DNA of 64,000 nt from Clytia hemisphaerica (GCF_902728285.1 NW_027104472.1:1063681-1127680); one strand, 5' to 3'. Shown: positions 390 to 44,366, counted from the stretch's first letter. Numbers and translations are program-made. Notes: a model not told the origin generated them from the sequence alone.

Positions 390-3300
390 ATGAGATTATT
401 GCTGTCAAAAAAAGGTGCTGAATCACCATTATACTTGAAACTTGCATGTGAAGAAATCCGGTTGTTTGGTATCTATGAGAAAGTATCTGAATACCTTAAG
501 GCGTTGGCACAAACCACGCCTCAACTCATTGAATTTGTATTGAATCGCATTGAGAAAGAATATGGATCCAAAATTGTCAAAAACGTTTTCACGCTGTTAC
601 ATCACAGTCGACAAGGTGAGAAAGAGTCACACAAAACAGTTTATGATTTTACCCGGAGAAGTACAGTGAAATTCCCATAACTCGAACCTCTATAACTCGA
701 ATGGCTCCTTAAATTCGAAAAAGATTTCTTGTCCCTTCAGTAAACAAAACCCTGAACACCAGTCTCCATAACTCGAACAAATTTGTGTTCCCCACAAAGG
801 GTGTTCGAGCTATGGAGACTCCACTGTATATTGTCAAAGAGTCTCCGTAATTTGAGCCTCTACATCTCGAATGTCTCTTTAAATTCGAACAAGATTTCTG
901 GTCCCTTCAGTAAACAAAACCCTGAACACCAGTCTCCATAACTCGAAATTAAAATCTCAAATAACTTTGGGCTCTCCGTGTATGATCGAGTTACGGAGAC
1001 TCCACTGTATCCCAGCGCTTCACTGTAACTCAGATAACCCGCAGTTTTGATCAGAAAAATCGAGGACAGCTCTAAAGTTTGTCGTCCTCAGTCAGTCAGG
1101 ACCTAGACAAATAAGAAGCTAATCGTCTCCGTTGCAAAAAAAAAAAAAACTCGCTATTGTTGCGCTTTTCCGTTGTTGGTACTATTTCAATTCTTTGCAA
1201 TTATAGGTTTAACAGAGGACGAATTATACGAAACTTTGAACTTTTTGGCGAATGTCCAGGAATGGAACGAAACATCTCTCCATGATTCCACGTGTTATTT
1301 TGACAAAGATATGGTGGCCCAGAAAGTACCTCGTGCCACATTTGTTTGTTTGTGTCGTGAAATGAAAACTTTCTTAAACGAAGACATGCAATCAGGGTAA
1401 GTAGGTCACGTGTTACATTGTTAACCAATTAGAATTGTTCCTCATCTCAATTGCTTGCTTGTTGAGAGACAAAGGTGAACATTTAAGACAAATGTGAACA
1501 TTTTAGATTTGAGTGTTTTTTTTTTATCTAAGGAGAATTCTGGCGACGGAATTGGTTGGCCCAAAAAAGTACTTTGTGCATTTTATTCCCCTATATTAAA
1601 AAAATTGCCCCTTTTGAGTATTTAACTAGTAAGCAACTTCAAAATTCAATACGAATCAATCCAAAATTCAAAAAATAAGTATCAATCATTTTTCTTCGAG
1701 ACCAAGATTTATGACAAACTATTCTCAGATAGCTTGAAAAGCCATGGTGCTGAAACCATCGACATCACTAGAATTTCATCTTTACTTAATCTTTCTTCAG
1801 TACGATTACCTTGATGCATAAAGAAATCATCGCTGTCATTGAGAAACGATACGCTTCGGATGCGCGCACTTCATCGCTCATTCATTTCGTCTTGGCTTCA
1901 TTTTATCGTAAACAGTGCGATCCTAACAACGACATGAAATGGCATGGAAAGGATATCAAAGCCCTTACAGAGCTGCCCTTCCATATGGTATGTTTTTTTT
2001 GCTTTGAAGAAGTTAGAGCGCAGTAGGCTTCTGCTCATCCTCTAGCGAAAAGAGTTTCTTATATAGAAAATGTATTATAGAGGTGTGCGATTTAGACTAG
2101 AGATTAGTGGTTATTGCCAAGAAATAGAAAACGGAGTCTGTAACATAAGTAAAAAGTGATAGCCGACCCTTCATCATTGTTTAACACAATGAACCAGTTA
2201 GGCTATCAATTCTTACGCTATTAGTACGGTGAACGGGGATTGAGAATATAAATGTACCAGGGCTTAAATGATGACTGAAAAGAATTTTAAAAAGTTAATT
2301 TTAGTCAAGTACTGCTTAAAGTAAGATTTGATTAACAAAATCTTTTAAATTTGAAGTTTGGTTCTTTGAGCACTCCATAGACTCTGTTGAGGAGCAAGCT
2401 CTGCTTCTCCGCTCACCACAAGCGATAATGCGAAGCTCAACACTCAGTGTTTTGAGCACTCTGGTGACAACAACAGTCTATACTCGCTTACCCGAGCTGC
2501 ACTGATGAGTCCTGGAAAGGACGAAACACGTGTCTGCGGATAGTCGTAGATTTGAAATTAAAAATCAAGGTATTTCTGCTGCAGAAAATTCTCTTATCAC
2601 ATTTAATCTAATGATCGTTTTTTATCTTAGGCTTCCTCTGGTCTCTTATGGGACGATTTCAAAGAAATGATGACGTCAGTCTATTTCATCAAAGCCAAAG
2701 TAGAGAATAATCTAGCACGTCAGCTGCTTGACGATCTTCATCTCAATCTACCTCTTAACAATGCGAAATGGTTGGCGAAGAAGAAAGATTTTCTTGGGAA
2801 CATTGACGTCAAAGATATCACGCAATTCATCACCAATAATTTGGATATTTTAGCAAAGTGAGTGGCTTTATTTACCATCCGCAGGATTAAAAAGGAGAAA
2901 AAATAAGAAAATTCTAATTCTAATTCGTCTGCAGTCTGGACTTAAGAAAATGTGGGTTTACCGTCAGCCGACCGACTATTCTCTAAGCTTGCTGACATAA
3001 ATACGTTTATTGCTATTTCGACGAAGATAATTACAAAATGTAGACCAAAATTCCATGAATGACCAAATTTAAACAAATTTCCGACCGACCGACCCACCTC
3101 CAAAATCTATGGTCGGGTGACGGCAAACCAAGCCAAGTCCAGCCAAATTTCCATTTTTCAAGAGCAAAATGTTCAAATTTTCCGACCCTTAATTGGATTG
3201 ATATTTAATTATCAGATTTTTCTGACTTCCATAAAGGAACCCTCGATATCGAGCATATGCCCTTACCCTTCACTAACCCCCCCTCCGGATTTATCATGGT

Positions 3301-3828
3301 AAAGGAGAGGTAAGAACCATTGACTTCCAAGCCCGAAGGGCTAACCTCGAGACCCCTGGATGGGAAATGAAGCTAGTCATTTCCCATTCAGAAAATGGTT
3401 TGTTTTTACACAAACACCGGCTTGAAAGTAAAATCTATCGTTAGATTGCAGAAAATGCAGTCCTAAAAAGCAAAGGAACCACTAGATACAATCCGTCATG
3501 ATTGCGGCGCGTTCTAGGCGCGTTCTGGATGGGAAAAAAGTGTTTTTTTTTGTCTGGGAAAGGTTAGAGATTCTACTCTACTAGCCCTTCAGGTTTTAAA
3601 TTCAATGGTAATGGCTTTCGCTATTCAAACCATAAACTTTTATCATAATGAATTTATTTTAGATACCCGACATTGCTACTTCAACTTGCCGTCAATTCAC
3701 CAGACGGTAGTTTCATGCAAACAGAATCAGCACAAATCCCTACTGAAGATGTTTTGAGTATCATGAAATGGTTGAATAAACCTGATGAAGTTTCAACATG
3801 CACTCTGTCAATCTCGAATGTTAAAAGT
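390..3828 (+). CDS. Helical (STAND/NACHT-associated HD/winged-helix-like) exons, probably the 5' part of the downstream WD40 gene. Exons approx 390-615, 1207-1396, 1801-1987, 2631-2858 and ?3673-3828.
   Basis: Long ORFs in the supplied ORF track end in canonical donors (caag|gtgaga 616, cagg|gtaagt 1397, atg|gtatgt 1988, aag|gtgagt 2859, agt|gtaagt 3829) and begin after polypyrimidine-AG acceptors. Phases join between consecutive exons (615 ends in phase 1 and 1207 continues ...SRQ-G-LTEDELYE; 1396 ends in phase 2 and 1801 continues; 1987 and 2631 join in phase 0). The peptides are alpha-helical in character (LYLKLACEEIRLFGIYEKVSEYLKALAQTTPQLIEFVLNRIEKEYG; HFVLASFYRKQCDPNNDMKWHGKDIKAL; LARQLLDDLHLNLPLNNAKWLAKKKDFLGNIDVKDITQFI). 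The acceptor for the 3673 exon could not be phased. Confidence 0.5.
664..1010. mobile_element. Two tandem copies of a roughly 170-bp hairpin MITE with termini AGTCTCCGTAACT.../...GAGTTACGGAGACTCCACTGTA. A third copy lies at 27238-27400.
   Basis: Unit 1 664-836 and unit 2 837-1010 share ...cccttcagtaaacaaaaccctgaacaccagtctccataactcgaa...ggagactccactgtat. The 27238-27400 copy shares both ends (agtctccgtaactatagaatgtctcc...gagttatggagactccac). Confidence 0.6.
3316..3648. mobile_element. Hairpin MITE (about 330 bp). A second copy of the family lies at 41321-41617.
   Basis: The arm ccattgacttccaagcccgaagggctaacctcgagacc is inverted at ggttagagattctactctactagcccttcaggttttaaattcaatgg. The 41321 copy shares the internal sequence caatccgtcat...gcctgagaaaggttagagatt and has arms tcaagccgaaggctagaggtcaatctc / gagattgacctctagccttcggcttga. 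Confidence 0.55.
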
Positions 3829-4300
3829 GTAAGTCAAACGTCTGTTAGTTTTGTCTGAATGAGTGAGACCTAAAAATCTACAACGTCATAGTATCTTAAA
3901 TGGTTGAATAAATATGATGAAGTTTCAACGCACACTGTCAATCTCGAATGTTAAAAGTGTAAGTCAAACGTCTGTTAATTTTATCTGAATGAGCGAGACC
4001 TGAAAATTTATGAGCGAGGATGTCTTGGACATTTAAGTTTCTAAAATGGTTGAATAATCCTGGTGGAGTCTCGACATGCACTCGACATGTAAATTTCAAA
4101 TGTTAAAAGTGTAAGAAAAAACTTTTGTTAAATTTGTCTGAATAGGCGAGACAGTCACTAGTCTTTTAACAGAATTCTTTTCAATTTCTTTGATATGGTT
4201 AAACGAGACTTTTATAAACTTTAATTGATGACTTGATCAGCAAGTCAAATGTCAAATTTCTGTTGATTTCGCCTGAATGGGCGAGACAGTCTTAAAATTG
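3758..4300 (+). repeat. Tandem triplication (about 120-145 bp units, progressively degenerate) of the 3' end of the exon ending at 3828 together with its GTAAGT donor and proximal intron.
   Basis: Unit 1 at 3758-3878 is ...tggttgaataaacctgatgaagtttcaacatgcactctgtcaatctcgaatgttaaaagtgtaagtcaaacgtctgttagttttgtctgaatgagtgagacc. Unit 2 at 3899-4010 is the same with substitutions (aaatatgatgaag, caacgcacactg). Unit 3 at 4046-4150 is more diverged. A further remnant (gcctgaatgggcgagacagtc) lies at about 4270. Confidence 0.7.
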
Positions 4301-6071
4301 TAAACCCAAAATCTTATGACCATGTAAGGGGAGTATAATTTCCTAATTTTTGGATCAAGTCAGAGACTCAAAAAAGTAGAGAAAAGGTTTCTTCAGAATT
4401 AGAACTAGGTCACAGTCTGGATCTAAACCACAATGAAACGACCGCCTTCCATCACGCATTACGCTCTCGAAAGAGCGCGCGCACATTATTAACGCCTACA
4501 TGTCATCTCCAGTACATTTTAGATTATTCATTGAAAACAAATTACAATATAGTCATATTTCATGTCTCGATTATTCATTTCCGAATAAAAGACATTCAGC
4601 GAAAAAAAAAAGAGAAACACCTGGGTAATCTAGTTAAAAAAACCGAAAGTAAATGGTAGACGAAGTAATGAGCCAAGGCAAAACGAGATTAGCGTACCAC
4701 TATGAAAGAAACCGCCTCCGGCGGTCGATAATGTTCTATCTTTTTCCTGCTGTACATGATTTTTATACTAGGTCACAGTTTGCTTCAGAGCAAACTGGTG
4801 CGACCGCTGTTTTACAGAGCAATTAACACTTTCTTCAGCAGTCAACAGAACAACATCCATCACAAATCATGTATGATACTTCATAAAAAATGAAAAACAG
4901 CACATGTAAAATGCAATAACTAACAATGTCGAAAATAATTGCAGAGGACCGAGAGAAGTTATAATTCAAAATTACTCCAAGAAGTACATCTAAAAACAAA
5001 GACTACCTCTGAAATCAAAACGCTTGCATCCTAGCTAACACGCTGAACTTTCTAAGCCACCGTACCATCCACCCATACCTCTCTGGGCCACCGTACACGC
5101 GGGATATCTCTTAGATATTTGCGTGGTTATCTCCCTAATATTCAGCCACCAAAAATGAAAATTAAAGATGGTAACTTAAGCTGCACGATTTCACTTTCGA
5201 TTTCAACTTTCAACCTCCCAGACTCCGTAAACAAAAACACGACGGTAAAAAACCGCCTTCAGGCGGTCGATAAGAACTTAAAGCTTCGGGACAAGCTTGA
5301 GTTTTTACAAGCTCTTATTTGATTTGGTTGGTCGTTAACCAGTAATAAAACAATTTTTTTTACTTTTTCTAAAGAACGCGTCATCTCTATCACTTCAAAT
5401 GACCAATTAGTGAAATATCTTATAAAAACTCCAGGTTATCCCAAAGCTTCGATGGCCAAAATATTATACCCAATTTCTCTGGAAATTTCACAAAAATACT
5501 AACAAAATTTTTGAAAATAAGAACATTTTAAAAACATTTCTAGGCTAAAAACTGAAAAAGTTTGGTTTTAAAAAATTTGGATTTTCTTCTACGTACTTTT
5601 CTACCTTATTTTAAGGTTATTTGGGATAAAGGAACTCTTAGGTTGGAAACAATGTTGATTATATTTGAATAGCAGGATAGATTTCCTAAGGATTATACCA
5701 ACTTAATTTCTTTTCCCATCTTCCTAGTTTTTGGGTTTCATTGAAGTAACAACCCATTGAAAAAAATGAATAGCTCTTTCATAATAATTGACGAATGAGG
5801 AAATGGAGTGAAATGAAATTCATAAATAATTGAAAAATCGATTATGAAATTTGAAAATGAATTAAAGTTACAGTATCTAAAGTTGAATTAGATCAGCCCT
5901 TTTTTTCACTTTTTACTTGAAATATAATAATCGAATAAAAATTTTGGAATCTTTTGGAATGGATAAGTAGATTTACTCATTTTTACTGGGAACGCCCAAT
6001 GAAACAATATGGTTTCTGCAAACAGCTCAAAATCTAAAACTGAATTTATTGGGAACGCCTAATGAAGCAAT

Positions 6072-7326
6072 ATGGTGTCTGCAAGCAGCTCAAAATGTAA
6101 ATCCGAAGTTGAAAATTTGAGACTAAAAATCTCCCAACTTGAACAAGACATTGATAAAATCAACAAGTTATCTAACAAAAGATTTGTATGTATCGAGAAA
6201 AGAATTGAGAATAATGGAAATGCCATTCAAGAATTGAATTTTGTACTTGGGCAATATGTTGGGACCCATGAGGACTATTATCGAGATATCAATGATGGTG
6301 ATAGACTAGAAACCGAGACAATAATTTCTGCTGAAGAATCTAAATTCAAGTCTGAGACAAATGACGGTATCAATGATGGCGATAGCAACTATGATCGGGA
6401 TATTGCCATCAGTGGCAAGAGTCGGGAAACCGATACAAAGATGATTGAAAATTCAGAGACAAGTGTCAAGTCAGAGACAAACGACGGTTTTATAGATGAG
6501 AATTACACAGATCGTAATGATGTCACGGAAACTCAAATAAACGGATCGCTACGCAACGATATCAGAAACGAGTCTCAAAAAGGTCGAAAAATTGATATCA
6601 ATCACTACTTGAAGAAAAGTCCTATTTCTTCAAAACGAAATAATTCAAGTCGTTCTCTGAAAAAGACTTTATCGGTGCGAATGTCGAAATCAAACTCTTA
6701 TAATGATCAAGGGATCCCTTTAGGTGCTATTCCTAAGGGCACATACTTTGAGAACCCATTATCAAATGATGTTATTAATAAAGATACTTCGAGGGATGAA
6801 GAAATCAACTCAAATCAATCTGCCCGGTCTTCTGGAAGATCTGATTCTAAAAAGTCAATGTCGCGAACTAATTCAGACGTTCAACTAAATTTTGGAGGCG
6901 TTTTAAGCTCGGTGACGATGTCCAGAAAGAGAGCTAACATTGAAGCCCAATTAGATAAGAACCTTGAAATCATACTTAGTCCGTTACAAACCCGCATGAA
7001 ACACCAAAATGACGAAGAAGGGATCAAACACTTGGAAGAAATCGAAGAGAAAATTCATGAAGAAAAACAAAGTTATGCTGAAGGACTAACCATCCATGGA
7101 GCAAATCGAATCGCGACTGGTAGACCATGTAGTAAAATCATATGGTCTATACTTGTGATTGCCTCACTTACTACTGCAGCTCTGATATCAAAGGAACACT
7201 GGGAGGCTTACTTGAACAAGAAAAGTATATCTAATACCATGATTTTACACCAACAGAGTATTCCCTTACCAGCTATTACTGTGTGCAATTATGATGGGAT
7301 TAACAAGGAGAGACGAAATTTCCAAG
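6072..7326 (+). CDS. DEG/ENaC (amiloride-sensitive Na+ channel, ASIC/HyNaC-like) 5' coding exon: long low-complexity N-terminus, HG motif, TM1 and post-TM1 FPAITVC motif. Probable donor caag|gtgggc at 7327.
   Basis: The 439-aa ORF ends ...GLTIHGANRIATGRPCSKIIWSILVIASLTTAALISKEHWEAYLNKK...SIPLPAITVCNYDGINKERRNFQ. TIHGANRIA matches the DEG/ENaC His-Gly motif. It is followed by a hydrophobic TM1 and the family-diagnostic FPAVTIC-type motif. The true start Met is uncertain (possibly internal, e.g. the MSRKRAN or MKHQNDEEG Met). Confidence 0.7.
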
Positions 7327-7419
7327 GTGGGCCACCGTCATATGTTCGCCCAACGTTGGTCAATTTCCCAAGCATGCACTCTCAGTTTTAAAGGTCTTTA
7401 TTAAGACCTTTTGGGTGTA

Positions 7420-7800
7420 TCAGGTAACGATCCGTTATCGCAGAACGTTTTGGGTCTTGTTCTAAATCAGACCTTAAGGTCTTGATTTTAATAGGACCTT
7501 TATCGCGCCCAATAGAGACTATTCTAGATCCCGAAAGAGACTTCAAGGGTTCTGATTCTATCAAACCTAAAAGGTCTTATTTTAAACGAGACCTTTCGAA
7601 AAAAGTCCGTTATCGCAGAACGTTTAGGGTCTTGTTCTAAATCAGACCTTTAGCGCGCCCAATAGAGACTATTCTAGATCCCGAATAAGACTTCAAGGGT
7701 TCTGATTCTATCATACCTAAAAGGTCTTATTTTAAACGAGACCTTTCGATAAAAGTCCGTTATCGCAGAACGTTTGGGGTCTTGTTCAAAATTAGACCAT
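7420..7800. repeat. Tandem repeat of a roughly 190-bp unit (about 2 copies) built from GGTCTT/AGACCT words. A related roughly 180-bp tandem duplication lies at 8941-9240.
   Basis: The string ccgttatcgcagaacgtttngggtcttgttctaaatcagaccttnagcgcgcccaatagagactattctagatcccgaanaagacttcaagggttctgattctatcanacctaaaaggtcttattttaaacgagacctttcga occurs twice. agcgcgcgaaatngagacctttagaggtct...cattgaaaaggcttgta is duplicated at 8941 and 9118. Confidence 0.65.
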
Positions 7801-9567
7801 ATTAGTGCCTAAAAGAAACTATGTTTAGTACTCGTTTTTGAAGGTCTGTAATTTTCAAAAGGCCTAAATTGTCGAAACAAAACCTAACAATAATTAAGAG
7901 AAGAAGAGAATAAAAATACTCAAGAATTTCAATGTAAAAGATATATTCTAACAAATATCCATTATATTATGTATATAATAGTTCTTTGATATCGAAACGT
8001 ACAAGAGATGTATTGTACGTGTCCAGTTTGTTCATGACAATGATGATTATTCACGACAAAGTCTAGCTGTTTATGTAAGTACGACTGTAAACCAGATTGT
8101 CAAACAAACGTTCGTGTCCAAGAGTTGAAAATTGAATAGACGTTTGTTATGGTGACGGTGACACAAAACTTTAATGAACTGGATAGTTGCGTGCTAACAT
8201 GAAAGCTGGATAGTTGCGTGCTAAAAAGAGATAAAGATCACAAAACTGGTTTTTAGGCCTATTACTTCATCGAAATGTAATTTAGAAAATTTGAAAAATT
8301 CTTTACTTTTGATCCAGATCTTCAAAGTTTTCCAGAAAAAAACAACAAATTGGGCAAAGATACAGTTTATTCAATTCTTACCTCAGCAGAGAGTCGATTT
8401 TGTTCTGGCCATACTTTAAACAAACGTTTAGATAATGTGATGGTGGGATTTACAGCGACAGTGACATGGGCTCACATGATGTTGGGTTAGATTCTCGTTA
8501 ATGTCGAAGCTGAAAAAAATAATATAATAAAAGATTTAAAACGAATATTGCACAAAAAATAAAATAAAATTTCGTAAAAGCCTAGCTAGTAGGATCAATA
8601 AATACAAGCACAAAATTCGATCGAGCCTCGCCAAAACTTTCCATGGGTGTATTTGCAACAATAAAGCTCCATGTTTGTGGAAGAAAAAAGGATTCATCCG
8701 ATCAAAAGATATATATATATATATAGCTCCAGTGAACAAAAAAAGGATTTTAAGAAATTTCATTACGTGAAGATTGTGTTACTTACCTTTTTTTCTTTTT
8801 GCTCTTCAGACCGTCTTCACCCTTTTGGCTCCAAAATTGTTTTGATTTTATTTTTGCACAATTTTGAACTTTTCGAATTTCGAACGACGTTCGAAACATT
8901 CGAAAATTCGAAAGAAGTCGTTACACTGCTCTAGATTTTTTAAAGCGCGCGAAATCGAGACCTTTAGAGGTCTTCATAAAAGCCCTTTTTATCGTGTCTA
9001 TTGGATGTTCACTATCGTGTCTATTGAAAAGGCTTGTAAATGGCAGACCTAAAAAGGTCTTGTTTCAAACCAGTGAGCCTTTAGAAGTCTTGAAGGAGAC
9101 CTTTTTGGCGACCTTTTACAGCGCGCGAAATTGAGACCTTTAGAGGTCTCCATAAAAGCCCTTTTATCTTGTCTATCGGATGTTCACTATCGTGTCTATT
9201 GAAAAGGCTTGTATCAGGCAGACCTAAGAAGGTCTTGTTTCAAACGCGTGATTGAGACCTTTAGAAGTGTTGAATAAGACCGTTTCCAAGAAGAGACCAT
9301 GAAGGTCTTATTTCGAAAATACAAAGGAGACCTTTTTGGTGTATAGAACAAGACCCTTGCTTGAATGGAAACCTTGCAAGGTCTCAATCGGCCACACAAG
9401 AGTTTCAATTCAGACCTTTCATGATATACTGACATGTAAGTAAAAATTAGACCGGCTAAGGTCTCAAAACTAAACCTAAAAGGTTTGAATTCAGACTGAT
9501 AAGGTCTTTCTTCAAATTAGCATCTAAAAGGTCTCATATAAAACCCTAAAAACTGAGAGTGTGAGAG

Positions 9568-10472
9568 CCTGCGGTGGCCTAAACTTAACAAAGTGCAGTG
9601 ACTTAAAGTCGAGACCTATCAAAGTTCAAACTATTTCACATGATTATTCTAAAACTGAATTACAAAATCATTTAGTGGAATTTGATAATACGACTAATTG
9701 TTTTACTATCAAATGTTTGATTCAACCAACACCATCTAGCCTCTTATCCATACAGGCTGTCGTTAATAGTTCAGCGGCTAGTCGTACGAGTGAAATTTAT
9801 ATAAATCCAGCCTCGGAGACATTTCCTGAAACTTCTCCTACAGTCTATTGGGCTAACGAAGGGTTCTACCATGTTAATATTGAAAAGAAAATTATTACGC
9901 ACCTTGGAAAACCTTATACGGACTGTGTGAAGGGAAAAGGATCATATTCTCAAAATAAATTTAAAGGGAACTATACAGTGACTAAATGTGAGAAAGGATG
10001 TTTTTGGGAAAAAGTTTTTGAAAAGTGTGGAGCCATACCTCAAATGTATAAAAAACACATGCGCAAGCCGTATCGATTTGATAACAAAACATTTGTAAAT
10101 AACACTTTCGGCCAAGCGTGTTTAACGTCTATTGAGGGTGATTCAAGCGTTACTCAAAAGTGCCACGCCCTTTGCAAACTACCCCCATGTTACGAAGAAG
10201 ATGTTAAAATGACGTTAAGTTATCACCAATCAACTGCGCCCAATTTTTTCGAACTAGCAATTACTTTCCAATCGTTCTTGATTGAAATCGTCGAGGAAGT
10301 ACCTGCTTACACTTGGCAAGATTTATTCGCCAACTTTGGTGGTTGTGTAGGTTTGATGACAGGGGCTTCCATACTATCTCTTTTTGAATTGTTCATTTTC
10401 TTTGGGTTAATTTTGTTAGACTTTTTTGATATTTATACGAAAGTTTCTACTAAGATTCCGCACCACAAGTAG
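9568..10472 (+). CDS. DEG/ENaC 3' coding exon: thumb-domain cysteines, palm, G-A-S selectivity filter, TM2 and C-terminus (stop TAG 10470-10472). The 5' boundary is uncertain (candidate acceptors at about 9567 or 9746), and intermediate exons may exist in 7330-9560.
   Basis: The ORF 9561-10472 (+) contains ...KPYTDCVKGKGSYSQNKFKGNYTVTKCEKGCFWEKVFEKCGAIP..., a spaced-cysteine thumb pattern. It also contains LAITFQSFLIEIVEEVPAYTWQDLFANFGGCVGLMTGASILSLFELFIFFGLILLDFF. This aligns with ASIC1 ...[49 protein letters not shown], i.e. the pre-TM2 segment plus the G-x-S filter. Confidence 0.75.
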
Positions 10473-21800: not shown

Positions 21801-24800
21801 CTTTTGGCTTCAATCCTTTTTGCTTGGAAAAAAGATTACGTCATAAAAATGTAGCGCACGCTCGAAAAAAAAATTGAACACATTTCAACTTTTTTCAACC
21901 GTTACGTCAGATCGCGACAATGGAATTGCTTAATTTTTCTTTTGACCAATAGCGTGATAGCTTTGCTCGAAAAAGTGCGATCGCAATAGTGGAGACCGGC
22001 ATTTAGAATAATCAAAATCTGCGCTGAGATAACGCCGAAGAAGAAATAGTAATAAATGTGTTTAATGGTTTTTAGTATGTATTTTATCCAGATCTATGAG
22101 AATTTAGCTAAGGGTTTAAATATTTGGATCGCTAATTTTTTTCTTTTTCTATTCACTTAGTTACATCATCTCATCTTCAAAAGATTGCAGTCTTCGCGTC
22201 TGGAACGCCATTTCCTTTGAAGCGGTTGGTCACCGTGGCAACAGAGGACAACAACCACAACAAGAAAGCAGTGTGGCCACTCTACATGGTCACACAGGGA
22301 TTGTGACTGGTTGTGATTTATCACCATGTGAAACTAAAGCTATATCGTGTGGTCATGATAGGGTAAGTTAGTCCCTATTCATGCCAACCCAAAATTTCCA
22401 TTCGATGGAAAACCCTCTCTAACGAAAGATGGGGATCTACTTTAAGGGCAGAAAGTTTCGGGAGACCGAAAAATCGTTATATTTTGCGGATTTTAGTTTT
22501 GAACAAAGTTTACTGAACAAAACGATTTTCTAAAAATCTCTATTTTTAATGGAAATAACTTTCGCGAATTTTCCGCTTTCCTTCTTAGCTGGCATAAACT
22601 TTAGCGAAAGAACGCTAAAGTTGCGAAAACCTCAAAACTTAAAGTAGATGTTTTAATTTTCTTGCTACAATTTGGTGGCTCATACAAACTTCAGTAAAGA
22701 ATCTATGTTTCTTTGTGTTTATGGGCTTATTTCTGACAAACGACAAAGCTTACCTTAGCAACCAATCTCAAACCAATGGAGCTTACTAACGACTGAAAAT
22801 GATGCAAACTCATTTCGGGTTTCTCTCTTTTAGGCTCTCTTCATTTGGGATTTAACTAACTTCACATCACTCTGTGTGGTTCATAACGCTCACGGTGACG
22901 GCATTACGGCGTGTTGTTGGTCTGACGTCGGCACGTACGTCGTGACGGGGTCAAACGATTTCAAGTTGAAACTATGGAATACAAAAGTGTTGATTGAAAA
23001 TAAAGATGAAATGTCGAAGTTGAAAGAACGAAGCACCTTCATTGGTCACACTACTACTATAAATGATGTCAAGTACAAGGTATTAAATAGGCCATTTTTT
23101 ATGCCCTTTTAGCGTCCGGTTATTGGACGCTGCCCCTCCTGAACTCACTACAATTTTGGTAAAAACAGCCTTTTTAGTGGAAAAACACTAGAAAAAGTGC
23201 TCTTTTTGGCCACCAACGGACGCTGCCCTGCCTTTCTAAAATATGGCCTGTTGAAATCATTTGGCAAAGTCGAACCCAATCCCTTTTTTATGATTCCGAT
23301 TATACCAACGCCCATCGGTAAATAAAAAGTATGGTACAAGTGATTCTGGGTGTTCATGATATGCACCACTGGAGAGTCTTCTGAGATTTTCCACCCAATA
23401 CTTTACTTAAACAATAGAAAAAGTGACGTATTGGGTGAAAGAAAAACAGAAAAATTGCATAATTTCGTGAAGTCATTGCATATCATGAATTGTCCGTAAA
23501 CAGACCCGATATTTACAAAAAGACGACTTCTATCCGTGAGATACACTCTGGTACAGAGTAGCCTGGGTATGAGATGGATTTTTCGAAGATTATGAAAAAT
23601 AAAAAATCGATCAACTATAGATGTCTCTTTTCCAAAAGTCCTGCCCAAACCTCTTAGAATTTGATTTTGAAAGTACTGCGACGATTCAGTAAAATTAACA
23701 AAAGTTGTTCTGAATACTAATGGGGGTCGGAGTTTGTTTCTTATCGAAGTTAGATCACTTACTTACTTGTTTTCTTAAATGTTATATTTTTACATAAGTA
23801 TTCCCTTTTTATATCAGACACATATTTCATATTAGGAAAGTGTCTGCCTATTGTTATATTATGCTGATATGAGCAAAAAAATGTTTTTCTTTTCCTCTTT
23901 CTGACCAATCTTGCTCCACATTAGTGTCAATTCAATGTGAAAAAGCTTGTGAATAAAAATTGATGAGTTAGCAAACGATACCACTCTTATACAAAAACAA
24001 AACCTTTAAACGACTTACGGTTTAGGTCACATACAAGCCAATCGAAAATGAGCTCGGAGCTTAAAACTTTGGAGAAAAGGAATCAATTTTTCAGTAAACT
24101 ACTTTAAAACTTATTGAATTTTCATTCTTTTTCGTACTTAGTTTGGTTGTGTAGTATCCAGCAGTGCGGATGGTCACGTCAAAGTATGGAATCAGAATGG
24201 TGTAGAGATAACAACATTCCAACCACACAAAACAAGGATCAATTCTGCAGATTTGTGGGCTCCTGGTGTCAGCATTGAGGACGAAGAACAAGGTGAATTT
24301 TTGAAAATTCTTTAAAATGAATGCTCCCAGAACACTATCAAGACAGTCAATAAAATCGCTCATCGATTATAGCTAATCGAGGTAAAAATAATTGCGAATA
24401 TCGATAATCGATCGATTAGCTAACTATTGAAATCGATTAGCAATAGATTATTTTCGATGAGATATCGATTAATATCGATTACCTTGCGGTATCGACTTTT
24501 ATCGATTATCTATCGATGAGCTATCGATTGTTATCGACGAACTATATATTGTTATCGACGAACTGTCGATTGTTATCGACGAACTATCGATCAATATCGA
24601 TTACCTTACAGTATCGATGATATCGATTGATAATCGATACAAAACATCCATCGATTAAATATCGATGACAGCGATTGGATTGATAGCAATCGATAGCTAA
24701 TCGAGGTCAAAAAATTGTGAATATCGATTAGCTATCGATTTAAATCTATGATCGATTTTATTGATTACGACTGTCATGAACGATTAAGTTTAGGGTTAAT

Positions 24801-27800
24801 CTAGGAGTAGTTAAAATTGGAAACGACCAGAAAGAAAGTCTGCAGATTAAACGTCGAGAAGGTTAATTCTGACAACTTTTCAGGAAGTGTAAACCGTCTC
24901 AAGTAAGGTAACAAATCTTAATGTTCAGGGTATATCCTCTAACACTTGACGCTAATGCAATGATTTTTTCAATCTTTAATCGAGCAAAGATTTTAACTAC
25001 CATCTTTTCTGCCCACGCTTTGCCTTCTCTAACAATTAGAATTTGCAGAGCAGAAAGTTGGCCGTCTAAACTAAAGCTTACAAAGATATAAATACTCACT
25101 AATAAATTCGTCTCATTTAACTTTAAGGTACTGCATGGTCAACACGCACCAAAGACTTGACTTCCATTCAGCAACGTGTTCGAGCCAAAACACCAAAGAA
25201 TCTCCAAGATATTCTATTGTTCACAGCCAGTGATGATGGTACCACACAATCTTGGAGACCTTTCAAGGTAATCTTAATAAGTTTGAGTTTAGAATTAAAC
25301 ATTTAGTTGTCAACAAGTAAAAAAATACATTACTGTCAGTTTCACCCGAAGGATTATCAAATGTAAAATGATTAACTTCTACGCCCCTTCTACTTCGAAA
25401 AAATTTCTCAATGTACACACAAAATCCCATCGGGAGTATATAATTAACACTATTAACATAGGAATAAAATGATAACAGAAAGTCGTAAAAGTTGGGTTGT
25501 AAAAATTAGGTTGTAAAGATTAATCTTCCGGGGGGGGCTGCTTTAAAGTACCATATCGGGGAAAAAAATGTCGGGGGAAAGTGACGAAAATTTTGAGGGG
25601 GTGACGAAATTTTCCTCCGACGAATTTTTTCCCCGATATTTTATCACCCGACCAAAACTTTTACCCGATTTTTTTATCCCCGACCATAACTTTTACCAGA
25701 TTTTTTTATCCCCGACCAAAATTTAAATCTAAATTTTTCACCTCTTTATTAACCAAAATTAGTGCTTTAAACGTCGAATTACAAGATCTTTTTTCGAGCT
25801 AGTGAAGGAAACCATTTTATTTGGACAATTTAGTTGGGTAAAAGTGACTAAATCGTAAATTTCGTCGGAAAAAAGTGATGAAAATGCCTCTAGGTGACGA
25901 AATTTTTCCCCTAAGAAAAAAACCCCGACTAAATAAAACTCCGACATTTTTTTCCCCGATGAGGTAATTGAAATAAAATTTATTTAAGTTTGAGTCACAG
26001 TGGAAGTCAATCGTGGCTCAGATCACGAGATTCATGTTTGACTATAACGTTTCGAGAGATTCTTCTTCCATAAAAAAATAGGGCAAGGTGGAGGATGTTT
26101 TCATACAAACGTAAATCTCGTGATCCAAGTCACTTTCTAAACTTTCAAGGTAGGTGCAAAATGAGTAAAGAAAGGGTCTAAAATATTAATGACGAAATGA
26201 CTCTACCAATTACCATTTATTTTGTTCCAATTTTTGATCGGTTATCGAGAAAACTGATTTTATTTAATTATGTTTTTGTTTGTGAATAGATTTTGGTGGA
26301 AATTCAATTAGGTGGATGAAGGGTCTTTTTGGCATCACAATGCTTTTTGATATCACAATGTGGTCCCCCCTACCCTTGCATTAGTAAACTACGCTGATCT
26401 CTCATCCCATCTTTGGGAGTTTGGGAGTGACATTTCAAAGCGATGTTTTAGGGTGGATGGACAAGAATGAATGGGTTTGAAATTAAGGGGAGAAATATCA
26501 AAATTCTTTCTTTGGAGTACTACTATTAGTTACACGGTCTTCTCGAGGTGGGATACGGGATATACAGGGTCAGTAAAAACCGTATTGGTGGCGAGGCTTG
26601 CCGAGTTTGGCACAAACATTCTCAATCACTGATTTACCCTTTTTTTATTCTTTCTGTCTTTTCAAAACAAAACATTCGAATTTTGACCAAAACATTCGAA
26701 AGCGCATTCGTCAATATGCAATGTCTTCTTTTTTTTCTCAATCGAATGCGAGGAAGACAGATACGGTTTATATCCCACCTCCACGTGATGTCTTTCGACC
26801 AATGGAATCGCGAGAATCTTACTGATGCCGGATAAACTATGTTATACGTTAGATACATTCTGGTACAGAGTGAGGGGGGGGGCGGGCCTCACTTTTTTTG
26901 CAGACCATACTTATGTACATTGAACCAACTTTAAACTGACCAAATCAAATCTTAACTTAAAAACTGTTTTTGGGTATCATTTTTCCCCCAAAATATTGAA
27001 CCCTCCACTCCAAATGGCTCACCTGTGAGCCCGTGGAGATACCAGACCAGACCACAAATTTGTATTGAAATATTCTCCCTATCTATTTCCTCATAGCCGG
27101 ACTTGTTGAACGCACTATACGGTCATTCCAACGTTGTCAGTGAAGTGAAACAAGGATCTAATGGAGAACTGATCAGTGGTAGTTTGGACGAGACCATCAA
27201 AGTCTGGGATTTCAAGGTTTGTTATGTTTTTTGTACAGTAAAGTCTCCGTAACTATAGAATGTCTCCTTAAACTCGAGCATGTTCTGGATCCCTTCAGAG
27301 GCACCAAAGCCTTATAAACACGACAACGTTTCCATTACTCAATTACTCGAACAAATCTGCGTTCCCCGTGAGAGTTTGAGTTATGGAGACTCCACTTTAA
27401 TTTCTTTTCAATCAATTTTTTAAAAGATGGACCTCTTGACCAGGCTTCTTGAAAGATTAGAGTGTGACCGCTAGGGAGTTCTCATTATGGCTGCAAGCCT
27501 TTTGCTTTTTACTTGCCTTGTAAGGTTTCTTCTAAAAGTTAAGTTAGATCCTGGTTACAACGAAAGTATTTTGCTGCTGTCCTTTAGAGTAGAATGTGGA
27601 GCTACTGTAATGGGATTAGGTCCCCCCCCATTGAAGACAAGAAGCGAATCTTGAACCTTTCTCAAGCAAGGAAAAGCTAAGCCTTAAATTTGTGCCTGTT
27701 TTGAATGACTGTTAGAATCTTGCACTTCCTTTATTTTTCTCATTTTACATTTTTCAAATTTTGCCGGTAAAATGTTACTTCCAATCCAGCCTTTTCAATG

Positions 27801-30800
27801 AAAACCAAGCTGGCCGCGTAATTTATATAGGAAATAAGTGGCTTCAAGTCCTAAATTGGAAATACGATTCTCGCCTAAGGCTATACCTAATTGCCCCCCC
27901 CCTATCCGAAATGCTAAAAACCTATATAATTTTCATCCGTTCGTTCTTCAGCTCTCAAAAGAAGAAGATAACGGACCTGCCCATTCAGGTGAAGTCACTT
28001 CCATCGCCCTTCACAATAATGACACCATTGCTACAGCAGGGCGGGATGGGCGTATCAACCATTACATCAAGAATGAGCTAACCATGACATACGTAACACC
28101 TGATTTGTCACCAGTAACCACCCTTGCGTTTAGACCTGATGGTAAGCGTGTTTACTTTGGCACGAGTAGCGGTCGTATGGAATGGCTGTCGACCGATAAC
28201 ACGGATCATTGTGAATTTTATACCCGTGCAAACTGTCCAGTGTTGAGTATGGCGACGCAAGGGAGTTTGGTTTTCGTCTGCACCACAAGACAGTTGTACA
28301 TCTTCACCATCAATGGGAATACATTGTAAGTCTAAGATCTTATAGTGTAGCAAGCTAGATGACTAATTCAGACATAGTAGAAATAAAGCAAAAAGTAATG
28401 AAGGGAATTTTAGCCTTATACAAACTAAATCCCGTAACAATAATCGTATTACCATATAATGCCTATACTACTGTATTATACGTATTATAAACGACTCCAG
28501 TCTAAAGATCTTATAAAATCCATAAGTTACGCGATTCCTTTATAAGAAATAGTAAAATTTTCATGCTCAACTGCTCTTAGGAAATTTAGTGAATGCTTAA
28601 TAATTTATAGGGTTTAGTCACTATATTATGATTTGCGTATACATTTTTTTATAAGAACATTCAAAATGTTTGAAGCCTTCGGATGTTCTTAACTTTTTGA
28701 GTTTTTTCCTTCACCCGCATTCCGGAAACACTACATTTTTTTATTTTCGCCTTACTTATAATTAATATTTCGGCCATTGAAGCCTCACGCTCTTATATAG
28801 TTTGTTATTATAAAAAAACGTGACGATCTTGTACTTCTTTTTTCACCAGGTCCAAAACAAGAGAACTGTGCGTTAGTTCTCCGCACACGGAGGGTGACTT
28901 TGACAAAATCACTCAGATGCAGCCTCTACACAATAACATCCTGGCAACTAGTTTCAACAGAAGTTTGGTATTCTCACCTCAAATATTGATCAAACAAATG
29001 GACCGAATGCTGGTAAGATAGAGTCGATTAATTTTGCCGACGCCCCAATAATCTAGGACTTTTAGACAGTTTTTTGCTTGTTTTAACGGGGTCCACGAAA
29101 CTTAGCTTATCTCGCTTTTTGTAATGTCACGTGATGGCACGTGCGACACTTTTTCAACCAAAAGCACTCCATCTAGCCCTTCCTAAAGAAGTGAAGGTAG
29201 GTAAGGCTAGAAATGCGACTAGAAATGCAACATCCGAGCTGTTATAAGATTTTAGGCCTTGATTGTACGTTGTTTTTTTTTTCAGTCTAGATGTGTGATG
29301 TTTTGACGATTTGAAATTATAAGATGTCATTCGTTTGAATTTTTTTTTAGGTCGAATATTTTCATAATCCACAGACAATCTTCGTTGACAGAGATAGAGA
29401 CCACCAATCAACAGATGCTGCATTTTCATCGGCATGTTTGCAAAATGATGGGTATTATTTGATCTATACTGGTCAAGAGAGTGGATGTATTTCACTCAAG
29501 GTCACATCTGACACTGAAATGTCGAAAAAAACTCAACAGGATATTCTAAACGAGCCTTCACAATCTCGACGAAAAGAACGTGTTGAAAATGTCGATTTTA
29601 ACGGCTCTTATGGAGGGCGTGGTGGGCGTCGTGGTAGAGGCGGATTTGGAAGAGGTCGAGGTCGAGGTCGTGGTGGGCGTTTGTATAGTCCGCCAAGTTC
29701 AGATGCTGATGAGTGGGATAGAGGTGAGTTTCCATTAAAGTTTCTTATACAAATAATTTACATATTTTGATATTTATGTATAGACAACAGTGTATCGAGA
29801 ACTAACTGATAATTATCATTATTATTACCATACTGATGCCCGCAATGCAGTTGTAGATATATTTCATCGTGAAGCGGTTATAATTTGGTTCCTTATTGGG
29901 CCCCCGGCGGTTTGCGTGAATGCGTGAATGGGCTTTTTCACTTGCGTGAATGTGTGAAAATTGAATTGGAAAACTTTGCTTGAACAAAAATTGCTTGAAT
30001 TGCGAAAAAACATCGTGTGAATGCGTGAATAGACGATATCGGCTTAACGTGAAAACTCAGATTTGATCCCCGTATATTGCCCACAATGCTTTGCGCGAAA
30101 AAAAGTTCACGCTGAAATTTTTTCCGCACAAAGCATTGTGGGCAATATTCGGGATCAAACCTGGGTTTTCACGTTAAGCCGATATCGTCTATTGGGAAAG
30201 GAATTTGCTTGATTGCGTAAATTGAAGGTCCGCTGCAACGGACTCCTTATCACTCGAATTTCTTGTGATTCCATTTATTTGATTAGACAACAGTTAAAAA
30301 AAGTTTGCCTCCATACACACAGATTTCTCTGAAAAATACTCTTTTCACTAACGCCTGTAGGCCCAGTGGAAGATGACTGGGGCCCGCCCAACCCTATAGA
30401 TGATGGGGACTGGGGACGAACGGATGAAGAAATCAAAAAACAAGATGAGCTTTATGAACGTGATCTTGAAATGGAAGACCTGTGCAATTCATCAAGAAAG
30501 GTTTGTTGAATAATTGTTTTTACAAACATTTTTTTTTACATTGGCTTTGATCACTGACCTTTATATATTATATAAAAAGTTCAGTGGCTTTGATAGAGTA
30601 AAGAAAAGTTTTTCAAATGATTATCCAGATGATAGTGAACAGCCTATAGTTATGTAATATTTCCATTATGGAAACACGCCCCTTCTCGCAGACCCGGTGG
30701 GATTTTTCAGCCATTGGGGATAAAACTAACAGACTGAAACTCATTTTATGGCTGGGGATTTCAATTCTTTTGTTTTCAAGTCAGAAAACTCAGTGGGGAT

Positions 30801-32186
30801 GGGAAAAAATATTGAATATTTTGCCTTGAGGATTGGTTTATTTGATTATTTTCAGTGGGGAACAAAAATTGGACAATAATTTTCCACTGGGGACGATATT
30901 TTGGCCATTTTTTTCAGACTTTCCTCACGCTCGATTGTGTTTCACTTCTCGTGCAAATTCGTTAAAAATTAGAAACAATGTAAGTTGTTCCCGGGGGAAA
31001 AAAATTCTTGAAAATTATTTTATGAAAAGGAGTCCTTTATAATGGAACTTAATTCAAAGAAGAAATGAATTCCATAGTGTGCAAGGGGGTTCCAGGTCCC
31101 ACCTTAAAATTCAGGTCCCACCTAACTCTAAAACTCCCAGACTCCCAGATCCCAGCTAAAAATGCTATCCCCACGAAAAATTATACTAATTCGATGAACG
31201 AAATAAAAATTCTTACAGTATGATAATAAAAAGGAGAAAGGTTTATAGTAAAGGAATTATTTATATGATACAAAATTTACCCACCTTAACTTGTTTCTCC
31301 CACATAAAACCTGAAAATTTCCAAATCCCACCTGGAAATTTTCGACCCAAAACACCGAGCCTCTCCCCCCCCCACTATTCTTCTGGGGGAGTGCACGCTA
31401 TGAATTCAGTGGAACGACAATCGAGCCAATCGGATATTACCTAGAACTCCGTTTGTCAAAGACCTTCTAATTAGTAGCATCTCCTTTGTTTTGTATTTCA
31501 GATCCACGATAGTGCCGTGACCGGGATTCTCATTTATGATGACGTCATCGTGACATCATCAAAAGATGCAACAATTAAAGTTTGGAAATATGCGAGTAAT
31601 GCGAACCGGAATCTTGAACACATTCACCAGGTTTGTTAATAAATCTCATGTTTAAAATGTTTTGTCAATGGCTAGAGGTATTAAGAGTTTAACTCAAACC
31701 TTCGGCAGTAGCGTAGCCAAGAAGGGCGCAAAATTTGTGTAGAAGAGCAGATTTTTATGACACTGTAATTATCTATTACTACCATAAATATGGGGACGAA
31801 ATGGAGTTTTTACAAGCTCTTATTAGATTTGGTTTGGTTGGTCGTTAACCAGTAATAAAACAATTTTTTTACTTTTTCTAAAGAACACGTCATTTTTATT
31901 AGTTCAAATGACCAATTATTAAAGTATCTTATAGAAACTCCATCTCATCTGCAATCTGGATTCTAGAAGCAGTAAGGAAATTTGAAATATTATTATTCCT
32001 AGTTCTAAAGGTTCTGTAGTCCGAAAAATGAACTGAAATTTTGTTGTTGATTGTCATTCACAGATTGGTTTGTTCTCGTGTCGTTCATCAGTCATTTCTA
32101 TGGCAGGATATGGCGATTCAGATGGAGTTCATCTGATTGTTGGTGATCGTATTGGGAATGTAGAGTTTCTGAAATTAAATATTTAA
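12852..32186 (+). CDS. WD40-repeat protein C-terminal region (TEP1/NWD1/APAF1-like, about 20 WD repeats, about 1090 aa). Exons: 12852-12947, 15691-15812, 18033-18291, 18600-18722, 19837-19935, 20613-20875, 21487-21636, 22161-22362, 22834-23079, 24142-24292, 25128-25267, 27097-27216, 27952-28325, 28850-29012, 29351-29723, 30361-30500, 31502-31630, 32064-32186 (stop TAA 32184-32186).
   Basis: Every exon is bounded by Y-rich..AG and GT(A/G)AGT-like signals. Intron phases are consistent across all 17 junctions (0,2,0,0,0,2,2,0,0,1,0,0,2,0,1,0,0). The translations carry classic WD signatures: DGKHVACGTEDGHVFVYD, GHSGAITACC..SASTDSNISIWDL, LVTVSLDKTARLWNV, GHKSSVRALAYSPNGSYLASSGLNGELLLWS, LFGASDDSSIK, VTASDDYKIIQW, SSSKDCSLRVWN, GHTGIVTGC, VVTGSNDFKLKLWN, SSADGHVKVWN, FTASDDGTT, GSLDETIKVWDF, ATAGRDGRI, SSKDATIKVWK. 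The supplied ORF track covers several of these exons (18636, 20658, 22876, 27838). Confidence 0.8.
14405..15240. mobile_element. TIR element (about 835 bp) with about 70-bp terminal inverted repeats. It abuts a second MITE at 15270-15600 that carries internal AGTCTGGAAAA tandem repeats and CAGGGTTGCCACG termini.
   Basis: cagttttcgggttggtctaaaaagcagggtagccaattggggtagccaattgggctaggttgtggggtacc (14410-14478) matches the reverse complement of ggtaccccataacctagcccaattggctaccccattggctaccctgctttttagaccaacccacagtttt (15172-15240). For the second MITE, acgcagggttgccacg at about 15262 is inverted at cgtggcaaccctgtaacg at about 15585. Confidence 0.6.
16020..17940. mobile_element. Foldback-like element. 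It is a roughly 1.9 kb near-perfect palindrome whose arms are built from a GGTAACA-type microsatellite and a 30-bp minisatellite (unit GAATGCAATGATGGAATCAATGGTGCTGGT). The outer ends are shared with a MITE family (CACCCCCTTCTCACAGACCC...GGGTCTGTGAGAAGGGGGTG). It lies in the WD40 gene intron.
   Basis: The left arm 16020-16865 is the reverse complement of the right arm 16875-17940. The ends are cttctcacagacccacaggg / gggtctgtgagaagggggtg. Inner matches are ggtaacacagggtaacacatgg... vs ...gttaccctgttaccctagtgttaccc, and 14 forward vs about 26 inverted copies of the 30-bp unit. The same end sequences flank 270-bp MITEs at 61520-61790 and 30670-30930. Confidence 0.75.
21776..22000. mobile_element. 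Roughly 225-bp MITE with GGTCTC..GCAATTGCAC / GTGCGATCGCA..GTGGAGACCGGC ends. An inverted-orientation copy lies at about 12105-12364, and a fragment at 43060-43140.
   Basis: The reverse complement of 21776-22000 aligns along its length with 12110-12364 (e.g. catttttatgacgtaatcttttttccaagcaaaaaggattgaagc and gcactttttcgagcaaag). Confidence 0.6.
24350..24740. repeat. ATCGAT-rich satellite with degenerate 10-30 bp units (tatcgattgttatcgacgaactatcgat...) in the WD40 gene intron.
   Basis: There are dozens of ATCGAT/ATCGAC palindromic cores spaced 8-12 bp apart, and a higher-order repeat gttatcgacgaactatcgattgttatcgacgaactgtcgattgttatcgacgaac. Confidence 0.7.
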
Positions 32187-43418: not shown

Positions 43419-44366
43419 TTGTTCAAAGTGGATGAATACAACGCAACAAGCACAGATTACAGCAACATTTTGTATTTCAAAATACTACCTTTATTTTGGA
43501 CATTACCAATACTAGTGTTGATGTTAATACCGAATATTCTGATGCTTACTGCACTCGTCAAAACAAAGAAGGAGTGTAAAATCTCTGGCAATCTATTTAT
43601 CGGGTTGTGCGTTTCCGATATACTGTGTCTGTTGTTTTACTACGGCACCGTTCTAGCTCCTTTGATTTTTCCTCCCAACTTTGTTGCTGACGCTCTACTT
43701 ATCATGTTTTGTATTGGAAATTTAGCACAGACTTTTGGAACACAAATATTTTTACTGATAACATTTTTAAGATGCTGGTCCCTGGCAAAACCTTTGATTC
43801 CAATCAGAAAGAGATACATTTATGGATATTAAAGTGTAGTCCTTGTTTTTGCTATTCTATTTCTAGTCATCTATATCACATTCTATTATATGGGACGCTA
43901 TTACGATTCGAAAGCAAAATTCGAGGTTTTAGGTGGTATCTCGTATGGTATTTTCATATTTTTAATGCTGGTTGCAAACTCGGTATCTTATATTGTCCTC
44001 AAAGGCTTAAGACTCTGCCATCGAAACAAACCATTGAAAGCATCACTGGATCCTGAGAAGGCTCATAAGCATAAGTGTATGGAAACTAATCTTGACAGCT
44101 CTGGAAACTCTCAAACGAAAAATGGTGATTTTGATAAGCGCTTAACGAATCTTGAAGACGCGAAATCACGCCGAAACAAGGTTAAAAGTGTAAACACAAT
44201 TTTCATGATAACATTGCTTTATGTAACCTGCATATTTCCAAGAAGTATATTGATGATTATCATTTACCCGATAGATAGTACTTGGAGCATTGTTTTGGGG
44301 AACATATTTTTAGCTAATACGTCGCTCAATTCGATTGTGTACATTTTAAGGACCAGAAAAATTTAA
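43419..44366 (+). pseudogene. Intronless class-A (rhodopsin-like) GPCR paralogue interrupted by a single in-frame TAA at 43830-43832 between TM3 and TM4. It is otherwise a full-length 7TM.
   Basis: The ORFs 43419-43832 and 43890-44366 are in the same reading frame and are separated only by the TAA. Read through, they give ...IRKRYIYGY*SVVLVFAILFLVIYITFYYMGRYY... The protein is collinear TM1-TM7 with the intact paralogue at 48518-49393 (e.g. LVKTKKECKISGNLFIGLCVSDILCLLFYY vs LVKTNNKTSGKLFIALCICDVSYLSLYFIL, and NTSLNSIVYILRTRKI vs NSSLNSVIYIIRTKNI). Confidence 0.7.

Follow-up and report, generated by a model that had tools for sequence, protein, structure and literature searches.

The 3' half of Clytia hemisphaerica TEP1: an RGG/RG insert before the last WD40 blades and a broken DEG/ENaC copy in the probable fifth intron

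The DNA analysed here is a stretch of 64,000 nucleotides (nt) from Clytia hemisphaerica (GCF_902728285.1 NW_027104472.1:1063681-1127680), referred to below as the window; with a G+C content of about 35 % it is AT-rich eukaryotic DNA. Positions 390 to 32186, on the plus strand, very probably represent the 3' half of a single TEP1 gene, coding for amino acids (aa) 1308-2729 of the protein, and the fifth intron within this half hosts a broken copy of a DEG/ENaC channel gene. RefSeq and UniProt already carry an annotation of the gene that is identical in structure, and the arrangement is thus not new. The initial annotation of this stretch had described a gene resembling STAND proteins of the TEP1/NWD1/APAF1 type, the NTPase domain of which would lie upstream of the window. 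Both statements are borne out, the gene being TEP1 itself.

The 23 exons found between 390 and 32186 translate, when spliced together, into 1,422 aa which are 100 % identical to residues 1308-2729 of XP_066933704.1 / UniProt A0A7M5VD52 (UniRef100_A0A7M5VD52), a protein of 2,729 aa with the record title 'telomerase protein component 1-like [Clytia hemisphaerica]'. The concatenated exons, used as a query, retrieved the EukProt C. hemisphaerica entry TCONS_00049092 (P0001; 1,582 aa), a transcript-derived model which is nearly identical over the helical exons and ends inside exon 4 (2631-2857). The 90 %-identity cluster of P0001 also contains XP_066933704.1 / UniRef100_A0A7M5VD52.

On the window exons, the Pfam profiles Beta-prop_TEP1_2nd and Beta-prop_TEP1_C were matched with 195 bits (cut-off 89) and 108 bits (cut-off 32), respectively. 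HTH_NWD1 spans exons 1-2 of the window (30.6, cut-off 27) and APAF1_C gives a weak match under its cut-off (20.1). The remaining domains are found upstream of the window in the same protein, as had been predicted for the NTPase. TROVE scores 310 bits on P0001, which corresponds to the N-terminal part of XP_066933704.1, and DUF4062, a TIR-like NADase domain, scores 53 bits. Two NTPase profiles pass their cut-offs, nSTAND1 with 28.0 (cut-off 27.1) and NPHP3_N with 26.4 (cut-off 24.8); NACHT itself, with 24.5, is slightly below its cut-off of 26.7, and a Walker A motif, GKSGSGKS, is present. Against the crystal structure of human TEP1 (chain 11gz_A) the DUF4062 region gives E = 6e-60, and the region of the catalytic glutamate is kept, human TEME being aligned with Clytia TELE. 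On the basis of the TEP1-specific domains and the identity to XP_066933704.1 the gene is therefore a TEP1 orthologue. It represents neither a new family nor a new architecture: the large 'STAND-like' gene is the annotated Clytia TEP1.

A full HMMER scan over 1.84 billion representatives, with relatives counted at E <= 1e-30, gave 2,618 relatives, the best of which are proteins of 2,300-2,750 aa. The best library matches include TEP1-named proteins from crinoid, sea urchin, amphioxus, lizard and opossum. Word-indexed homologue searches were dominated by bacterial WD40 and DUF4062-NACHT proteins and returned no eukaryotic TEP1, which only the HMMER scan reached. The domain order TROVE, DUF4062, NACHT, helical region and WD propellers is the same in human TEP1 (Q99973) and in the echinoderm, amphioxus and other vertebrate TEP1 proteins, and the Clytia gene is collinear with TEP1 orthologues of 2,500-2,750 aa, with 33-43 % identity over the DUF4062-to-helical query. 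STAND proteins of the NWD1, NWD2 and APAF-1 type have in common with the window gene a NACHT or NB-ARC NTPase, a winged-helix/helical region and C-terminal WD40 propellers. However, they lack TROVE and do not match the TEP1-specific propeller families, and the window gene is thus TEP1 and not one of these.

The exon structure was derived by scoring GT donors and AG acceptors between successive open frames of the plus strand, which encode helical-domain and WD40-like peptides at the positions given in the initial annotation. As a validation, the scoring reproduced all four junctions of the transcript-derived P0001. The exons form a single consistent chain, with five at 390-3828 and eighteen at 12853-32186. 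All 22 introns are GT-AG, with donor plus acceptor totals of 9.0-16.3 and every acceptor scoring at least 3.0, and the spliced coding sequence of 4,269 nt has one stop codon, which is terminal. The closest orthologue, P0150 (2,571 aa, 43 % identity), is collinear with every exon. The features are as follows, a slash marking the exon boundary in splice-site sequences.

390-615 (+): TEP1 exon, aa 1308-1382, in which the winged-helix/helical region that follows NACHT begins; same sequence as in P0001 and P0300; Pfam HTH_NWD1
1207-1396 (+): TEP1 helical exon, aa 1383-1445; splice model
1801-1987 (+): TEP1 helical exon, aa 1446-1508; splice model
2631-2857 (+): TEP1 helical exon, aa 1509-1583; splice model; P0001 ends within it
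3663-3828 (+): TEP1 helical exon 5, aa 1584-1639; donor AGT/GTAAGT, phase 0
3829-12852 (+): TEP1 intron 5 (strongly inferred), 9,024 bp, host of the DEG/ENaC gene; P0150 continuous across the junction
12853-12948 (+): TEP1 WD exon 1, aa 1640-1671; P0150 collinearity, splice model
15691-15812 (+): TEP1 WD exon 2; P0150 collinearity, splice model
18033-18291 (+): TEP1 WD exon 3; P0150 collinearity, splice model
18600-18722 (+): TEP1 WD exon 4; P0150 collinearity, splice model
19837-19935 (+): TEP1 WD exon 5, 99 nt; splice model
20613-20875 (+): TEP1 WD exon 6; P0150 collinearity, splice model
21487-21636 (+): TEP1 WD exon 7; splice model
22161-22362 (+): TEP1 WD exon 8; splice model
22834-23079 (+): TEP1 WD exon 9, 57 % identical to P0150
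24142-24292 (+): TEP1 WD exon 10; P0150 collinearity, splice model
25128-25267 (+): TEP1 WD exon 11; P0150 collinearity, splice model
27097-27216 (+): TEP1 WD exon 12; P0150 collinearity, splice model
27952-28325 (+): TEP1 WD exon 13; splice model
28850-29012 (+): TEP1 WD exon 14; splice model
29351-29723 (+): TEP1 WD exon 15, a blade and then the start of the lineage-specific linker; donor AGAG/GTGAGT
30361-30500 (+): TEP1 WD exon 16, acidic Trp-rich part of the linker and predicted helix, aa 2621-2641
31502-31630 (+): TEP1 WD exon 17, start of Pfam Beta-prop_TEP1_C
32064-32186 (+): last TEP1 exon, including the stop codon; Pfam, splice model

The five helical exons and the eighteen phase-consistent WD exons on one strand that had been described earlier were thus all found by the splice model, and the WD block covers aa 1640-2729, i.e. 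the expected 1,090 aa. Its first position is 12853 and not 12852, a difference of one nucleotide. The figure of about 20 WD repeats is plausible from the length of the block, but those directly recognised are fewer: 11 blades have the canonical xxDxxxxxW ending and eight pass the Pfam per-repeat WD40 score, the others being degenerate.

The evidence argues strongly that the 9,024 bp between the two exon blocks are a true intron and that the blocks belong to one gene. Residues 1548-1609 of P0150 align with exon 5 and residues 1603-1633 with the exon at 12853, no residues being missing between them, and the spliced junction, which reads ISNVKS followed by SILSISLSRDGKH, is gapless against P0150. 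Among the phase-0 combinations of donor and acceptor, 3828 to 12853 scores highest, and the RefSeq/UniProt protein spans the junction, since it contains SISNVKSSILSISLSRDGKH. The continuity of P0150, the best-scoring pair and the annotated protein together therefore identify the gap as intron 5. The question raised in the initial annotation, whether the donor at 3828 is joined to the acceptor it placed at 12852, is in this way answered in favour of joining, with the acceptor at 12853. Missed exons were sought in the 9-kb gap and none was needed, P0150 being continuous across the junction. The gap had been described as one of roughly 8.5 kb with a DEG/ENaC gene in the same orientation; gene and orientation were found as described and the size is to be corrected to 9,024 bp.

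Two repeats were observed in the TEP1 introns. At 3757-4007 (+) there is a tandem duplication of a 130-nt unit (1.9 copies, 90 % identity) which includes the last 72 nt of exon 5 and its donor; the intronic copy is frameshifted and keeps an identical decoy donor, AAAAGT/GTAAGT. A TEP1-like fragment at 4014-4103 was considered as a missed exon and rejected, as it repeats the end of exon 5 in the form of a frameshifted tandem copy. Intron 7 contains, at 16262-17813, a palindromic minisatellite of about 1.5 kb, in which arrays of a 30-nt unit run in one orientation at 16427-16875 and in the opposite one at 16895-17664. These are flanked by GGTAACACAG-type arrays and their complement, and long spurious open reading frames (ORFs) occur on both strands.

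Within intron 5, the following features were found.

6072-7376 (+): 5' part of the DEG/ENaC ORF, with a long N-terminal tail, the HG motif, the first transmembrane segment and the start of the extracellular domain
7377-9561 (+): inserted element, 2,185 bp, beginning CACTCTCAGTTTT, ending in the reverse complement of these letters and flanked by TG on both sides; terminal inverted repeats, empty site
9562-10472 (+): 3' part of the DEG/ENaC ORF, with the extracellular domain, the GAS motif, the second transmembrane segment and the stop codon

The open frames 6072-7391 and 9561-10472 match the Pfam profile ASC at positions 1-84 and 230-455, and the HG and GAS motifs read LTIHGANR and MTGASILS, respectively. 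Of the DEG/ENaC paralogues, the nearest Clytia and Clytia-like ones share 52-70 % identity with the nested channel, whereas for the two most distant matches the value is 46-50 %. A missing middle exon, which the unmatched ASC positions 85-229 could indicate, was rejected: the paralogues run from ...NFPSM straight to RACGG..., and no member of the paralogue family has the middle region of the profile. With the hydrozoan DEG/ENaC channels (HyNaC-like; 'acid-sensing ion channel 4-like' in Clytia) the nested copy shares the ASC domain, the HG and GAS motifs and the two transmembrane segments, but its ORF is broken by the 2.2-kb inverted-repeat element. It also has a low-complexity N-terminal tail of about 330 aa, which is found in P0304 as well.

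A homologous gene was found on L001, a scaffold of 2,921 nt from an ENA metagenome, where it is intronless and forms one continuous ORF of 670 codons. The 3' half of the nested copy shares 87 % protein identity and 83 % DNA identity with it. L001 aligns to both flanks of the element and is continuous across the insertion site with a 2-nt TG overlap, i.e. it provides the empty site. The terminal inverted repeats of the element are 41 nt long, are located exactly at 7377 and 9561, and are 78 % complementary with 13 exact bases at the tips, against a chance expectation of 0.03 matches. Subterminal AAAGGTCTY motifs and internal tandem repeats of 150 bp and 175 bp were also present. Long ORFs were not observed within the element, and no search aimed at a transposase was made. 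It is probably a non-autonomous DNA element with terminal inverted repeats. As a separate observation, the presence of a hydrozoan DEG/ENaC gene on this marine metagenome scaffold indicates that the sample contained Clytia-like DNA.

The nested gene is thus an intronless DEG/ENaC paralogue of a family expanded in Clytia, in the same orientation as TEP1 and disrupted in this assembly. The identification as DEG/ENaC made in the initial annotation stands, whereas the gene is not complete, its ORF being split by the 2,185-bp element. It is possible to suppose that the channel is still functional and that the 2,185 bp are removed as an intron, either as an 'introner'-type transposon or as a non-canonical intron. 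Both halves of the ORF are intact and have the HG and GAS motifs, sequence preservation at the insertion point is perfect, and the excess of protein over DNA identity to L001 in the 3' half suggests recent constraint. We nevertheless consider this unlikely. The segment is bounded by CA...TG; whichever of the three registers compatible with the TG overlap is chosen, its ends are not GT-AG, GC-AG or AT-AC, for which reason it was rejected as an intron. If the frame of the 5' ORF is continued into the element, TAA follows after four codons. Only poor cryptic pairs are available: the best in-frame GT-AG pair totals 7.5 with an acceptor of -1.1 and would remove 38 residues, which falls short of the range given above for the TEP1 introns. 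In addition, no protein at least 90 % identical to the nested locus was found in a collection of 5.8 billion clusters, although several Clytia paralogues are present there. Most likely, the nested copy is a recently inactivated gene or an insertion allele. With its transposon and the matching empty site it is a tidy example of recent gene disruption, and a reading as a two-exon gene would be wrong.

The other unusual feature of the locus, which is otherwise ordinary, is a low-complexity insert in a variable loop of the last propeller of TEP1.

29606-29680 (+): RGG/RG box SYGGRGGRRGRGGFGRGRGRGRGGR, aa 2561-2585, net charge +9, in frame in exon 29351-29723

The exon and the tract between WD blades were found as previously described. 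In GGRGGRRGRGGFGRGRGRGRGGR an RGG-x3-RGG is followed by RGRGRGRGG, which makes it an RGG/RG motif. The definition, reportedly that of Thandapani et al. 2013, is at least two RGG or three RG spaced 0-4 residues apart. The tract is the first part of an insert of about 120 residues; it is followed by an acidic, Trp-rich tail (net charge -13: DEWDRGPVEDDWGPPNPIDDGDWGR...) and then by a predicted helix. In the alignment of C-termini the insert falls into the linker that follows a conserved blade (...GxxxGxLxx) and precedes the TEP1_C unit of 73 residues. The same linker has 0 to about 45 residues in other TEP1s, in which it is often charged and Trp-containing, and Clytia differs from them in the length of the insert and in its combination of an RGG part with an acidic/Trp part. 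The insert is lineage-specific, because P0150 lacks it, having only about 14 residues at that linker.

By its sequence properties the insert is coding. Stop-free windows of 121 codons make up only 0.8 % of intron windows of equal length, and its codon-usage score is matched by only 1.1 % of them; the codon-usage log-odds is 0.26 per codon compared to 0.11-0.44 in the other exons. The codons of the RGG tract are mixed (Arg CGT, AGA and CGA; Gly mixed), with only short slippage-like units.

It could be argued that the main protein does not contain the RGG/acidic segment, with 29500 joined to 31502 in the dominant mRNA so that 363 nt are skipped and the insert represents a minor isoform or a prediction artefact. 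The join is in frame and gives GCISLK/IHDSAVTG, which resembles P0150. This seems quite unlikely, since the donor at 29500 is weak (3.9) and that at 29723 (AGAG/GTGAGT) is the strongest in the gene (11.2). The two pieces, of 223 and 140 nt, sum to a multiple of three only jointly, the 121 codons are open with exon-like codon usage in the correct frame, and the tract, with its mixed synonymous codons, is not a pure microsatellite. The RefSeq and UniProt sequence includes the insert.

We thus retain the insert as part of the protein, where it is most likely a disordered accessory segment. An AlphaFold2 model of aa 2257-2729 gave a predicted local distance difference test (pLDDT) value of about 30-40 over the RGG tract, which is placed between modelled strands. 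Our best guess is that the insert contributes a weak affinity for RNA or an intramolecular contact based on charge. The tract resembles those of FUS, hnRNP U, FMRP and nucleolin GAR in its closely spaced RGG/RG repeats, interspersed aromatic residue (F in Clytia) and predicted disorder. In contrast to these, it is placed in a loop of a beta-propeller and not beside RRM or KH domains, and it directly precedes an acidic segment (net -13) that could neutralise it.

That two genes are present, a TROVE-NACHT-helical gene ending after 3828 and a separate WD40 gene starting between the channel gene and 12853, with the channel intergenic, is extremely improbable: P0001 does end in exon 4, short of the WD exons, but exon 5 closes on a good phase-0 donor without a stop codon, the exon at 12853 is preceded by a strong acceptor and its open frame offers no start codon further upstream, TEP1-specific propeller families in the downstream block go with TROVE, DUF4062 and NACHT in the upstream block, orthologues hold both halves in one protein without a gap at the junction, and RefSeq and UniProt carry the joined 2,729-aa protein.

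Several points nevertheless weigh against the account of one TEP1 gene with a coding, disordered insert and a transposon-disrupted channel copy. The splice junctions are supported by identity to the annotated protein, by collinearity with orthologues and by the quality of the splice sites rather than by transcript reads, and the transcript-derived P0001 does not itself span the 9-kb intron. The weak in-frame donor at 29500 could be joined to 31502, skipping the whole RGG/acidic insert and giving a product closer to P0150. The AlphaFold2 model is poor overall, with a mean pLDDT of 52.6, and supports only the lack of confident structure in the insert, while the function of the RGG tract is pure inference. 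The 64-kb window contains no second copy of the element, the transposon nature of which is drawn from the repeats and the empty site, and the flanking 2-bp TG could be microhomology instead of a target-site duplication.

RG tracts are not restricted to Clytia TEP1. Dense tracts were detected in six of 150 TEP1 relatives (P0153, P0169, P0170, P0162, P0187 and P0279), and two more reach the lower threshold of the scan. Four of the six are from the molluscs Mizuhopecten, Mya and Elysia and the dictyostelid Heterostelium. The statement in the initial annotation that no RGG box is known in these families is contradicted by the RG/RGG tracts of these four and of the other two of the six. In the six relatives the tract is located after TROVE or at the N-terminus and not in the propeller. 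Clytia TEP1 lacks the RG tract that some molluscs have after TROVE and has its RGG tract in the last propeller instead.

Other coding features were observed elsewhere in the window. Two ORFs on the plus strand, 43419-44366 and 48353-49393, resemble seven-transmembrane receptors; one has a weak 7tm_1 match (19 bits, below the cut-off) and the other is without a Pfam match. They may be fast-evolving cnidarian genes of the G-protein-coupled-receptor type. An intronless ORF of 327 aa at 49839-50822 (-) contains a class I methyltransferase domain (Methyltransf_23, 31.6 bits), and a large exon at 58803-59867 (+) encodes most of a serine carboxypeptidase (Peptidase_S10, 223 bits). At 45744-46818 (-) there are two adjacent ORFs, of 157 and 182 aa, which are rich in lysine and glutamate and have no Pfam match; one of them has a Cys/His cluster, and the pair may have been left behind by a mobile element. 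The window gave no matches in Rfam and tRNA scans.

For mammalian TEP1, residence in vaults and binding of vault and telomerase RNA are known, and DUF4062 of human TEP1 is an active TIR-like NADase inside vaults (bioRxiv 10.64898/2026.05.01.722283). The same authors note that TEP1 has the STAND layout of APAF-1, and they speculate that the WD40 domains sense an unknown signal which drives oligomerisation of NACHT (bioRxiv 10.64898/2026.05.01.722283). The Clytia protein has the corresponding layout, with TROVE for RNA binding, a vWA-like region, DUF4062, the NACHT NTPase, a helical region like that of APAF1 and WD40 propellers, about three in number, and by analogy it presumably works as human TEP1 does. 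If the comparison with APAF-1 and human TEP1 holds, the propellers would serve for sensing or docking and would in this role control the oligomerisation of NACHT and the NADase activity in the vault. In Clytia the variable loop before the last two blades has grown to about 120 residues, comprising the basic RGG/RG tract, the acidic Trp-rich segment and a short helix. This would form a disordered appendage of the sensor propeller, which may add RNA contacts or an intramolecular charge interaction.

A more far-reaching suggestion, tentative and rather unlikely, is that the RGG tract and the acidic Trp-rich tail inside the last propeller form a functional module and do not represent neutral growth of low-complexity sequence. 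The module could be a second site for the binding of RNA, switched by methylation or charge and placed on what is presumed to be the sensor of a STAND-type, TIR-like NADase. If so, the Clytia module would replace the RG tract which mollusc TEP1s carry beside TROVE, and the WD40 'sensor' supposed to control the oligomerisation of NACHT in vaults would itself be directly linked to RNA binding. RG/RGG tracts are recurrent, at varied positions, in invertebrate and slime-mould TEP1s, which fits the RNA-binding role of TEP1, and such tracts could serve as natural variants for asking what the WD40 region of the newly recognised vault NADase senses.

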